Part shown: positions 13,464 to 18,874 of the stretch, in pieces
Layout: every line of letters begins with the position of its first letter
Position numbering within the stretch: the first letter of the stretch is position 1
Notes under the pieces: generated by a model
The model's input: only the letters and a program-made list of their open reading frames with translations
What the model was told of the DNA's origin: nothing
The model's database searches: none
IMG/VR virus record: IMGVR_UViG_3300022753_001925
Direction: 5' to 3' (one strand)
Origin: a virus
Length of the DNA: 28,230 bases
Made by a program: the position numbers and the translations under genes

Positions 13464-14096
13464 ATGGCGGATACAATTGTTTTATTGGAGGAACGCAAGG
13501 AGATTACCACATTCATATTGGATGATGGCACTAAAACATTAGTCGATAATGTAGTCACTCCAACAGGTAGTACTCTTGGCTATGAATACTCCAATAAATG
13601 TATGGTTGATGATATACTTTGTATTTCAGACAAATCTGCAATAGGAAAGGAATGTTTAAAGAAATACAGTGGAGATGCAACGGAAGTTCCCGTTGGCGTC
13701 CTTGTCAATGAACCGGTAGTAATGACAGCCGGGGAGAGAAAAGGAAGTGTACTTCTTTTAGGCGGACTTTACCGTTTAAAACTGGCTTCAGGCATTGTTA
13801 ATATTAAAGCAGGAGACAGAATCAAATTGTCACCAACTGGAGCTATTGTTGATAATGCAGGTGAGTTTCTAGCTTTTCATCCTGTTGCAAATTCGGATGA
13901 ATATAACTATATCAATTGTTTCCAAGTAAGTCTTGGAGGTAAAGGAGAGAAAGGAGACACCGGAGATACAGGTGCTGCGACTGTTATCCTCGGGTCTTAT
14001 GATACTTTCGAAGAACTAATTGCAGCACATCCAACAGCTAATGAAGGAGATGCCTTCCTAGTTGATGGAGAACTATTCGTTTGGCATAACGATTAA
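13464..14096 (+). CDS. Decoration-protein domain fused to short collagen and a C-terminal half-knob (fibre anchor)
   Basis: First ~155 aa align with the 22377 protein (about half identical by eye), then [13 protein letters not shown] and GSYDTFEELIAAHPT..GDAFLVDGELFVW. Confidence 0.85.
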   Translation: MADTIVLLEERKEITTFILDDGTKTLVDNVVTPTGSTLGYEYSNKCMVDDILCISDKSAIGKECLKKYSGDATEVPVGVLVNEPVVMTAGERKGSVLLLGGLYRLKLASGIVNIKAGDRIKLSPTGAIVDNAGEFLAFHPVANSDEYNYINCFQVSLGGKGEKGDTGDTGAATVILGSYDTFEELIAAHPTANEGDAFLVDGELFVWHND

Positions 14097-14126
14097 TTTA
14101 AACTAAATAAATAGAGGTGTTTATAT

Positions 14127-14999
14127 ATGGCATGGGAAAGTGTTGGTGTAATCAAAGGACCAAAAGGAGATACTGGTGAGAAAGGAGAAAAAGGTGATAC
14201 CGGAGACGCATTCACCTATGACAAATTCACACCAGAACAATTAGCAGGATTAACTGGTGAAAAAGGTGACACAGGTGCTAAAGGTGATACCGGAGCCAAA
14301 GGAGACACTGGAGCAACTGGTGAAACCGGAGCAAAAGGTGATACAGGAGCAACCGGTGCAACTGGTGATAAAGGAGATACTGGTGAGCAAGGTTTAAAAG
14401 GTGACACTGGTGCAACCGGTGCAACTGGTGCTACCGGAGACCCATTCAGCATCTACAGAACATATCAAAGTGTTGAAGCAATGAACGCTGATGCAGCCAA
14501 TGTTCCTGAAGGAATGTTTGTAGCAATCCAATCTGATGTTGAAGATCCCGACAATGCAAAATTATACTTAAAAGGAGCAAACAGCTTTTCCTTTGTAACC
14601 GATATGTCCGGAGCAACAGGTCTTAAAGGAGACACTGGAGCCAAAGGTGATACCGGTGCTACAGGTGCAACTGGTGCTACTGGTGATAAAGGAGAAACCG
14701 GAGACCAAGGACCACAAGGTTTAACTGGTGAGAAAGGTGATACCGGACCAACTGGTGCTACCGGTGATAAAGGAGATACAGGAAAAACAGGAGACAAAGG
14801 AGATACCGGAGATACTGGTGCTACAGGTGCTAAAGGTGACACTGGAGATACTGGTGCAACCGGCCCACAAGGTCCGCAAGGATACAGTACCATTATCAAA
14901 GGAAGCTATGCTACCTATGCAGAATTAATAGAAGCACATCCAACCGGTACAACTGGTGATGCATATCTTGTTGACGGAGAGCTTTACGTTTTCCAATAA
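14127..14999 (+). CDS. Collagen-like fibre protein with half-knob at each end
   Basis: Long G-X-Y runs ([12 protein letters not shown]). Starts [11 protein letters not shown] and ends [41 protein letters not shown]. Confidence 0.95.
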
Positions 15000-15024
15000 A
15001 TAATTAATTCCATTAAATCCCTTC

Positions 15025-16566: not shown

Positions 16567-16574
16567 GGTGAATT

Positions 16575-17621
16575 ATGAGCATAGCAAGTAATGTAATTGA
16601 AACAAATTCAAGACTCACAACAGCTAGAAACTTACTTAGAGAAAAGTTAACTGCCAATGGAGTTCAATATGATGAGTCAGATACAATATTTGAATTATTG
16701 AAAAGATGGGCATATACCCGTACTGCCGGAGACTATGACTTCATTTATCCAAGTGAATATGAAGTAAAGGAAGGAGCGGAACTTTCATTCGGCGTATTCA
16801 TATATGACCATGACGGTAATTTTGTTGAAGGAGTTCCAGCCACTGTTATTGTTAATGGCACAAGCTATAAAGTCTATTCCAACAGCAACGGCCATGCAAT
16901 AAAAACAATAACAGCAGGAAGTGAAGGAAGTGAACTGGAAATAGAGATTATCGCAGGCTACAGTCATTTTTCAGATGCCTACACAATCGCTTCAGCTTTA
17001 GAGTTTACAGATGACAATGAACAGAATACTTACCTATATGATGTAATTAAATATCCTGCAAGCGTTTCCCATACATTTTCAACATATAAATATGACAGCG
17101 GTTATAACAAATACGGCTATTCATTCTCAAAAGCAGTTACAAGCGCTAGTGCAGTAATGTTAATCCCAAAAGGAATGGGAGCATATGATCCAACTAAAAA
17201 CGGAATTCATTTCTCAGTCCAGATGGTTCAAAAGAAAAACAGCAACTCTGGATGGGGAGATGCAATAGCTTTAGTAAATTCAAAGGAATTATCACATTAC
17301 CGTGACAATAAGATTTTGGAACTTGGAGCATATAATGCAAAGAAAGGAATCAAGTATTCAAATACAAATCATGTCGTTAATGAATTAAACACAACCACTG
17401 GACAGTTAACATTAGATTCAGTTTGGTATACATTCGAATTGTACTATGACAATGGATATCTCAAGGCCACTATCAAAAACGGAAGCACAACAGTTTATTC
17501 ATATGAGGGCGATGTAAGTAATGTTATTTCATTTGATAAGTTCTATCCGGTGATAATGGTGTATGATTACGGTGGAGCAATGCTGTTTAATAATGTAATA
17601 ATCGAACCATGGAGCAGGTGA
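16575..17621 (+). CDS. Putative fibre tip/adhesin (Ig-like then lectin-like region)
   Basis: MSIASNVIETNSRLTTARNLLREKLTANGV N-terminal motif, Ig-like (GNFVEGVPATVIVNG) and ConA-like (WYTFELYY..G.LKATIK) segments. Confidence 0.6.
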   Translation: MSIASNVIETNSRLTTARNLLREKLTANGVQYDESDTIFELLKRWAYTRTAGDYDFIYPSEYEVKEGAELSFGVFIYDHDGNFVEGVPATVIVNGTSYKVYSNSNGHAIKTITAGSEGSELEIEIIAGYSHFSDAYTIASALEFTDDNEQNTYLYDVIKYPASVSHTFSTYKYDSGYNKYGYSFSKAVTSASAVMLIPKGMGAYDPTKNGIHFSVQMVQKKNSNSGWGDAIALVNSKELSHYRDNKILELGAYNAKKGIKYSNTNHVVNELNTTTGQLTLDSVWYTFELYYDNGYLKATIKNGSTTVYSYEGDVSNVISFDKFYPVIMVYDYGGAMLFNNVIIEPWSR

Positions 17622-18874
17622 TTAATTTGGCTGAAGAAGAATGGATTGAAATCGGACCCGTTAAAGGTGACACTGGACCTAAAGGAGATACTGGAGACAT
17701 TGGAATTGGAACAATTATCAAAGGACATTATGATAATTACTCAGAGTTCATTGCAGTTCATCCTTCAGGCAGTTTAGGTGATGCATATATAGTCGAGGGC
17801 AGCTATTACTACTGGAACGAAAACGGCTGGGCAAATGCAGGCTCAGTAAAAGGTGATACCGGACCTCAAGGTGATAAAGGTGTTAAAGGAGATACTGGTG
17901 CGAAAGGTGATACAGGAAACAAAGGTGATACTGGAGACACAGGCGAAAAAGGAGACCCCGGACCTAAGGGTGATACTGGTGATACAGGAGCTATTGGACC
18001 TGCAGGAGCAACCGGCCCGAAAGGGGACACTGGAGCTACTGGTACTGGCATTACTATTAAAGGTTCATATACTACATATGAGGAACTGATACATGATCAT
18101 CCAACAGGTAACGATGGCGACAGCTATTTGGTAAACGGATCATTATATGTGTGGAACGGTACATCATGGGAAAACGTTGGAAACATTAAAGGGGAGAAAG
18201 GAGACACTGGACCGCAAGGTATTCAAGGCGTTAAAGGCGATACTGGTGAAACTGGTGATGCTGGCTTTTCACCAATCGTTAATGTTGACCATGTAACTGG
18301 CCAGATTGTAATCACCACAGAAGATGGTTCATCAACAATATCATTTAGTGAACTCAAAGGTGATACTGGTTCTCAAGGTGTTAAAGGAGATACAGGAGAT
18401 ACTGGAAAAGCATTTGAATATTCAGACTTCACACCACAACAACTTGCTGGACTTAAAGGTGAAACTGGTGATACTGGACCTGCCGGAGCAACAGGACCTA
18501 AAGGCGATACTGGTGCAACAGGTCAGGGTAGTGATGAGGAAGCAGGATGGAAACTCCCCGTCGATAAGATACAGACAACATCCACATTACCAACTGGCGT
18601 CAGCAAAGGTTATCGTGTAGCCATCTGTACAAGTTCACTAATGGCTATTAAAGAATACAACGGCAGTTCCTGGGATACTGAAACACTTGACCCCTATTCA
18701 GTGATACCATTAAAACATTCAGGCAGCATACAGATGTATTTGGCAAAAGCTAGTGGGCCTGTTTATATGGGTGTTGATTATGGTGTCTTTGGTAAATTCC
18801 GGTTTATGACTCAGGCAGCATATGATGCATTAAGTAGCTATGATGAAGATACAATTTATTTTGTAAGAAGTTAA
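17609..18874 (+). CDS. Collagen-like fibre protein with two intact internal knob repeats (likely start TTG 17627)
   Basis: G-X-Y runs and two intact IKG.Y..Y.E....HP.G..GD.Y.V.G..Y.WN...W.N.G..KG modules. C-terminal [19 protein letters not shown] motif. AGGTGA RBS precedes TTG 17627. Confidence 0.9.

Follow-up and report, generated by a model that had tools for sequence, protein, structure and literature searches.

In a stretch of viral DNA of 28,230 nucleotides (IMG/VR virus record IMGVR_UViG_3300022753_001925; in the following, the window means the whole of this stretch), the region between positions 13,464 and 18,874 encodes collagen-like proteins in which a small globular module, here called the knob, is intact in one protein and cut at gene boundaries in three others. 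The proteins starting at 13464 and 14127 (the anchor and the extender protein) end with the first three quarters of the knob, which we call the socket, and the proteins starting at 14127 and 15094 (the extender and the third fibre protein) begin with the missing last strand, the plug. The two places where a socket gene is followed by a plug gene are referred to as junctions 1 and 2. We consider it probable that consecutive proteins are joined end to end at both junctions through the completed knob, the binding of the two halves to each other being what we infer.

According to this proposal, the 13464, 14127 and 15094 proteins would be three segments of one trimeric collagen-like fibre, held together non-covalently. 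The socket at the end of the upstream protein would receive its fourth strand from the plug of the downstream protein, and this strand would continue directly into that protein's own collagen helix. The base would be the N-terminal domain of the 13464 protein, sitting on the capsid in a head fibre comparable to phi29 gp8.5. The distal end would be the C-terminal segment of the 15094 protein; the two adhesin-like proteins whose genes follow are probably held by this segment. The elements concerned are the following.

13464..13928, plus strand: residues 1-155 of the first fibre protein, the anchor domain, whose fold is like that of capsid decoration proteins (AlphaFold2; predicted local distance difference test, pLDDT, ~90)
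13935..13973, plus strand: short collagen stalk of the anchor protein, four Gly-X-Y triplets (from the translation)
13974..14096, plus strand: socket 1, the first three quarters of the knob and then a stop codon (AlphaFold2, conserved end)
14097..14126, plus strand: spacer of junction 1 with the ribosome-binding site AGAGGTG (14113-14119)
14127..14999, plus strand: extender protein with plug 1, collagen, a second globular module, collagen and socket 2
14130-14156 and 14886-14996: plug 1 (extender residues 2-10) and socket 2 (extender residues 254-290)
15025..15071, plus strand: terminator-like hairpin and T-run between the extender and the third protein (from the fold energy)
15094..15453, plus strand: third fibre protein, in which plug 2 is followed by collagen, a small domain, more collagen and, at the C-terminus, a segment ending L-L-G-S
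15097-15123: plug 2 (residues 2-10 of the third fibre protein)
17627..18874, plus strand: tip fibre with a plug-like strand (17636-17668), knob 1 (17705-17848), knob 2 (18047-18208) and a C-terminal Phage_tail_C domain

The knob in intact and divided form

The open reading frames (ORFs) 13464-14096, 14127-14999, 15094-15453 and 17609-18874 comprise 210, 290, 119 and 421 amino acids (aa), respectively. Pfam and PHROG scans covered 19 ORFs of the window. The Pfam family Collagen (PF01391, cut-off 27.2 bits) matched the 14127 protein with 93.3 bits (7.6e-27) and the 17609 protein with 59 bits (3.9e-16), the latter also matching PF24243 (1.4e-10). The 15094 protein stayed below the cut-off with 18.4 bits, and the 13464 protein has only its four triplets.

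An intact knob is a segment of about 45 residues between Gly-X-Y runs, with the pattern H-P...G-D-x-Y-L-V...L-Y-V-W...W-x-x-V-G-x-I-K-G. Two such modules had been noted in the 17609 protein in a preliminary description of this DNA; they are present at residues ~33-80 and 147-200. AlphaFold2, run with a 17-sequence alignment, folds each of them in one chain as strand-helix-strand-strand-strand (pLDDT 72-86), that is, as one compact fold with the plug segment as its last strand; the collagen parts were left unmodelled, as expected for a monomer. The 13464 and 14127 proteins end 2-4 residues past the third knob strand, and in the 13464 socket the model places strands at residues 175-179, 197-200 and 203-206 and a helix at 182-188 (pLDDT 71-88). 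The 14127 and 15094 proteins open with M-A-W, the fourth strand leading straight into the Gly-X-Y repeats. The translations thus bear out what the preliminary description had read from the letters: two proteins carry only the first part of the knob at their C-termini, two begin with its missing last strand, and the 14127 protein has both halves, plug 1 at its N-terminus and socket 2 at its C-terminus. The second globular module of this extender (residues ~102-160, window 14430-14610) is distinct from the knob and interrupts the collagen; it also occurs in L-L-G-S proteins of a second lineage described below.

Outside this virus family we found the knob only in one piece. A tblastn search detected intact homologues in 342 of 50,697 phage records, mostly in tail fibres and minor tail proteins, among them those of Escherichia, Gordonia, Mycobacterium and Erwinia phages. 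A single protein can contain as many as ten copies. All of the 60 matches listed were a single piece within one annotated gene, and 335 of the 342 records have 80% or more of the module at a single site. A degenerate DNA pattern of socket, stop, start and plug, run over IMG/VR, gave four chance matches and no split knob, the pattern being a narrow one; the split form is thus confined to this family as far as these limited searches go. There is no Pfam family for the knob, and a PDB sequence search with the knob alone gave no match.

In structural comparison, the knob resembles the N-terminus of Geobacillus virus E2 ORF18 (Foldseek probability 1.0, root-mean-square deviation (rmsd) 1.4 A over 51 columns). 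With the trimerisation domains of the multiplexin collagens XVIII and XV it aligns over 51-55 residues at a Z score of 4.8-5.3, an rmsd of 3.7-5.3 A and 4-15% identity; this Z falls where unrelated folds also score, and the match spans the whole domain of 53-56 residues. The collagen XV/XVIII domain starts the in-register assembly of the triple helix (review, PMC7852327). By its likeness in fold to this domain, each knob is suggested to be a node of trimerisation and registration. For the same reason a pre-formed trimeric socket might align three plug strands in register and nucleate the next collagen helix.

The junctions are gene boundaries

At junction 1 the socket gene ends with TAA, followed by a spacer of 30 nt that contains in-frame stops and, seven bases ahead of an ATG, the sequence AGAGGTG. 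Junction 2 consists of TAA, a hairpin, nine T, then TAGGTGA and ATG. Both are true boundaries between separate genes with their own ribosome-binding sites. The hairpin of junction 2 has a fold energy of -22.1 kcal/mol (z -4.6), which none of 200 shuffled sequences reached, and together with the T-run it would lower expression of the distal genes. Relatives with a junction 2 spacer of only 22-26 nt lack it. In a second lineage (L046:1985-2003 and L048:5306-5324) the plug gene starts 3-4 nt past the socket stop, and the last socket codons, W-E-E, provide the plug gene with its GGAGG site; coupled translation is implied there.

These features bear on the idea that a single polypeptide is made across the junctions by stop-codon read-through, frameshifting, ribosome hopping or RNA splicing. 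In its favour, the genes on either side of junction 1 in the window share one frame, as do those of the L048 junction, and without stop, spacer and start the loop would be about as long as in fused relatives. However, the spacers contain at least two in-frame stops, vary from 3 to 94 nt and share no conserved structure, the downstream gene of L046 lies in another frame, each of the plug genes comes with a ribosome-binding site and a start codon, and junction 2 carries the terminator-like hairpin. We regard this explanation as very improbable.

Conservation of the split

Related loci were collected by a metagenome scan with an alignment of the anchor domain, which yielded 78 loci from dozens of independent assemblies of rumen, goat and human gut samples, some on contigs of more than 100 kb. 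The anchor protein has 468 length-matched relatives. Among the best 120 of these, which are 82-97% identical to it, 119 keep the 13464-type C-terminal end, a few with single substitutions. Sockets and plugs were counted by a regular expression on protein ends, a plug start being sought up to 160 nt after a socket end. In 59 of 63 cases a plug-type start came after the socket-type end. Of the four exceptions, two were variants that the pattern had missed and two lay at contig ends. The spacers ranged over the 3-94 nt given above, and over 13-36 nt for junction 1 in the clade of the window, whereas the protein ends stayed fixed. One protein of 454 aa (P0206) also ends in mid-knob, yet its gene runs off the contig end and it is not a split.

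Altogether the split point was found in 37 anchor genes across two lineages. The preliminary description had named a survey of homologues as a check; in it the same loop was cut throughout, and a random variation of the position was not seen. By comparison of these sequences, the split point is conserved, old and not random. Pairwise ratios of nonsynonymous to synonymous differences per site (pN/pS), at a pS of 0.34-0.42, were 0.07 for socket 1 of the 13464 protein and 0.14 for the other socket, and 0.25 and 0.21 for the plugs; the values are somewhat flattered, the sequences having been picked by motif, though the motifs matched nearly every locus. They indicate purifying selection on both halves.

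A recent pseudogenising fission, or an assembly artefact, is extremely improbable against this background. Collagen repeats tend to be misassembled, and among the supporting contigs some are short. However, the same boundaries occur in a circular GenBank genome of 34 kb and in dozens of independent gut and rumen assemblies, including the contigs above 100 kb, and a synonymous divergence of ~0.4 goes with purifying selection on both sides. The independent assemblies, the pairing in 59 of 63 cases and the selection on both halves refute this candidate.

Fused and split forms among the relatives

The relatives differ in how many pieces the fibre consists of. About 21 loci have three pieces as in the window. 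In 10 loci there are two pieces, the anchor socket being followed directly by a protein with plug, collagen and tip. Four loci form the second lineage, with an anchor only 56-62% identical, where a socket is followed by a plug-collagen-L-L-G-S protein. Fused proteins of anchor, collagen and L-L-G-S segment without any knob occur in ~17 loci, and a fused anchor-knob-tip protein (P0122) occurs in locus L003. A quick tree of the anchor domain requires at least two changes of the split state across well-supported branches, and therefore the joint arose more than once or moved by recombination.

When the two-piece pair of locus L013 (210 + 181 aa) is concatenated, the protein P0122 (384 aa) can be aligned with it over the full length, the sole structural difference being the stop, spacer and start in the loop between strands 3 and 4. 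Likewise, the three window proteins jointly carry the anchor N-terminus and the L-L-G-S C-terminus of fused relatives (P0124, P0137). No other argument for the pieces acting as one fibre is as strong as this colinearity of fused and split forms.

At the distal end, proteins of the 15094 class may measure no more than 66 aa and offer no further candidate for an attachment element. In split and fused loci alike, two adhesin-like genes come after the 15094-type C-terminal segment:

15457..16566, plus strand: first non-collagen adhesin-like protein, coming after L-L-G-S fibres in all locus types
16575..17621, plus strand: second non-collagen adhesin-like protein, its stop lying inside the ribosome-binding site of the tip gene

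No match to the 15457-16566 protein was obtained in the Pfam and PHROG scans. It had been suggested beforehand that the 15094 or 17627 proteins cap the fibre and hand on to adhesins. For the 15094 protein, its L-L-G-S end and the adhesin-like genes next to it agree with this part; the part concerning the 17627 protein is not supported, as set out below.

Junction types and the extender

The extender, with a plug at one end and a socket at the other, had been proposed as a repeatable unit that polymerises head to tail. Fibres with no defined end, and of differing length, would result if its plug also fitted its own type of socket. Besides the two halves in one protein, the similarity of the two junction types (roughly two thirds identical by eye) is in line with such self-extension, and so are minimal plug-collagen-socket proteins of 69 and 75 aa on two contigs of ~600 bp. 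Yet contigs of useful length hold one extender per locus at most, and many loci none (the ten two-piece ones). Junctions 1 and 2 keep separate plug and socket sequence classes, conserved in every locus, and the contigs with the mini-extenders are very short and perhaps chimeric across repeats. The idea of a self-polymerising extender is therefore not supported, and we judge it quite unlikely; a chain of defined pieces remains our preferred reading.

The mini-extenders themselves (L007, 597 bp, P0211; L008, 645 bp, P0318) consist of a plug, a few collagen triplets and a socket, and each precedes another plug-starting gene. They would be natural mini-extenders unless these contigs are chimeric assemblies, and we give them little weight.

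A protein that follows a 13464-type socket carries the plug type of that junction, whether its distal part is an extender or a tip. In the 18 proteins that come after an anchor socket, only M1, W3 and G7 are invariant among the N-terminal columns.

The tip gene and other plug-like starts

The tip gene was described beforehand as beginning at 17627, within the longer ORF 17609-18874. This is borne out: 16 tip homologues begin M-A-E/D-x-E-W at the residue equivalent to TTG 17627, and the GGAGCAGGTGA ribosome-binding site contains the stop of the gene ahead of it. From these homologous starts and the position of that site, TTG 17627 is most likely the start codon. In ~20 related loci the tip gene start overlaps or abuts the stop of the 16575-class gene.

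The start of the tip protein had also been taken as a plug for the same socket. This could not be upheld, since the same N-terminus was found in at least eight loci with no socket-ending ORF in the 3.7-17 kb fetched; the tip strand therefore does not require a split knob. As a third, degenerate socket the C-terminus of the 16575 class was tried and rejected (hhalign of 18 C-termini against 136 knobs, probability 0.05). The ends of this class are conserved in their own right, with aromatic-Pro, Asp-Tyr-Gly-Gly and Glu-Pro-Trp motifs (window 17480-17640, ~20 loci).

Plug-like starts were also seen in other proteins. For P0298, the translated upstream ORFs showed no socket. For P0238 and P0282, the gene tables, the only data inspected, suggested nothing socket-like. 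Where collagen helices begin, the plug strand may serve a separate function.

Joined segments or independent proteins

Several observations weigh against a joining of the halves. Tips of the 17609 class, with their plug-like N-terminus, stand in at least eight loci without any socket-ending ORF in the 3.7-17 kb fetched, and a plug-like N-terminus occurs in a protein of a bacterial phage with no socket upstream. AlphaFold2 folds the 13464 socket without its plug at a pLDDT of 71-88, and in this model the socket might be an autonomous cap. The pairing of plug and socket types is confounded with orthology. All split examples that we found come from one virus family, and the 59 socket-plug cases are thus not independent. 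Finally, the fold matches of anchor and knob are modest (Z 5-7).

These points lend some weight to the alternative that the proteins are independent, that recombination at knob and collagen sequences set the gene boundaries, and that the 14127 and 15094 proteins attach by some other contact. The socket modelled as folded alone and the plug-like N-termini in socket-free loci and in an unrelated bacterial phage fit this explanation; moreover, collagen repeats are known substrates of recombination, and the module order is heavily shuffled among the relatives. On the other hand, neither the 14127 nor the 15094 protein, the latter belonging to the class of as little as 66 aa, has another recognisable attachment domain. 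The cut is always in the same loop with the socket always paired with a plug, the fused relatives are colinear with the split pairs, and purifying selection on both halves is strong. We hold independence of the proteins to be unlikely, though a possibility to be taken seriously, and prefer joining through the completed knob.

A more far-reaching version of the joined fibre can be considered. The split knob might be a portable connector, in which a trimeric socket captures three plugs and templates the next collagen. The extender, the L-L-G-S piece and possibly the 17627 tip would then compete for the same capsid-bound socket, giving mixed fibre lengths and adhesins per virus, and tips would be swapped by moving gene boundaries. 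This appears rather doubtful at present.

The anchor domain and its probable attachment to the capsid

A decoration domain at the N-terminus of the 13464 protein was already part of the preliminary description. The Pfam scan of this domain gave no sequence match; by fold the assignment is supported. With Foldseek against the PDB, capsid chains of Haloferax virus HFTV1 came first (expect value, E, 1.9e-4), followed by a cyanophage cement protein and the base of the phi29 head-fibre protein gp8.5 (probability 0.98). In an exhaustive VIA-align search, 10 of the 11 top chains were capsid decoration or head-fibre-base proteins (Z 5.2-7.1); the gp8.5 base aligned with Z 6.7 and an rmsd of 2.1 A over 54 residues, and lambda gpD ranked twelfth (Z 4.5). 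In BFVD a DUF2190 protein was matched with a TM score of 0.63.

A paralogue of the anchor domain is encoded next to the capsid genes:

22377..22859, plus strand: stand-alone anchor-domain paralogue, directly upstream of two HK97-fold capsid genes

This paralogue (160 aa) is 56% identical to the anchor domain (BLASTP, E 9e-61). The capsid genes follow at 22873-23811 and 23828-24754, the same order being present in ~19 related loci; the 13464 gene itself lies ~9 kb upstream of the capsid genes. Fold and position suggest that the product of 22377-22859 is a plain capsid decoration protein; the near-identical GenBank record described below names it 'preneck appendage protein'. Since the decoration-fold matches are consistent and the paralogue stands beside the capsid genes, the fibre is most likely a head fibre, with the modelled base domain anchored on the capsid. 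A base elsewhere on the virion seems unlikely, though it deserves to be kept in mind.

A third, distant paralogue lies at window 11137-11907 (24% identity over 150 residues, E 9e-9) and bears a non-collagen C-terminal extension of ~90 residues. There may be a family of decoration proteins with different cargo. In two further loci (L037:10468-11631 and L038:11800-12963, P0151 type) a second anchor-domain gene, fused to a non-collagen domain of ~230 residues, is part of the fibre operon, and hence one operon can encode two different capsid-anchored appendages.

Source virus and neighbouring genes

The 5.4-kb stretch of the window is 98.2% identical to GenBank BK063679.1 (Caudoviricetes sp. vir323, a Methanobacteriales virus), a circular genome of 34 kb assembled from goat faeces and assigned to Methanobacteriales. 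This record annotates a portal, two HK97-fold capsid genes and a pseudomurein endopeptidase, and labels the fibre genes as tail protein, tail fiber protein or hypothetical protein. The window also encodes a large terminase, a C5 DNA methylase and a capsid-family protein. We know of no isolate of this virus.

A glycosyltransferase-like gene (12860-13459; PHROG 1574, with weak Pfam matches to Anp1 and GT21) ends 4 nt before the anchor gene, and Gly-x-Thr triplets are abundant in the collagens. Because of these two features together, the fibre may be glycosylated. In the fused-fibre relative L003, only an ORF of 99 aa is found at the position of the glycosyltransferase-like gene.

Significance and comparison with known systems

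The family infects the main methanogens of gut and rumen, and no tail or receptor-binding apparatus has been recognised in it so far. The paper on MSTV1 leaves collagen, fibres and decoration unmentioned. Our reading, if true, would give a head-fibre role to proteins that carry the GenBank labels quoted above. If the halves bind, the split knob would be a natural minimal connector with a plug of about ten residues, apparently transferable, that joins trimeric collagen rods in a defined order, and it would explain how these archaeal viruses freely shuffle fibre lengths and adhesins. It would also be a possible tag-and-catcher-like part for building collagen assemblies. In a literature search we found no paper describing a split module between collagens.

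In chaperone-usher pili, a subunit without its last strand receives this strand from the N-terminus of the next subunit, which results in a head-to-tail order. The likeness of this donor-strand complementation to the split knob is one in principle only. Pilins are immunoglobulin-like and monomeric and need a periplasmic chaperone and an usher, whereas here a small alpha/beta knob would act within a trimer and the chain has at most three defined pieces. The modelled knob, with one helix and four strands, is not the immunoglobulin-like pilin fold lacking strand G, and among the 19 window ORFs scanned none belonged to chaperone or usher families.

The SPP1 protein gp12 is a collagen-like capsid decoration protein (PMC7602432). 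Both phi29 gp8.5 and SPP1 gp12 form trimeric fibres on a capsid-bound base, as proposed here for the 13464 fibre; however, they are single polypeptides without joints or terminal adhesins, and the phi29 shaft is helical instead of collagen. The multiplexin trimerisation domain (PDB 3hsh, 3hon, 3n3f) is similar to the knob in size and fold and also adjoins a collagen helix, but it is metazoan, C-terminal to the helix and never split, and the low identity given above does not imply common descent with the knob.

Among solved phage adhesion devices, that of Tuc2009 offers the closest precedent for completion of a fold in trans; there, a C-terminal beta-hairpin of BppU completes the sheet of BppA domain 2 to give a composite titin-like fold (mBio 2016, PMC4742702). 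That joint is a beta-sandwich without collagen and forms a side branch instead of an end-to-end connection, and no pairs of fused and split forms were described for it. If its halves bind, the split knob would be a collagen-specific addition to the few solved folds of this kind. Nearest in sequence are the collagen-like tail fibres and minor tail proteins of phages, which have the same knob module at the same place between Gly-X-Y runs; there it is contained within one chain, whereas here it is cut before its last strand and divided between two genes.

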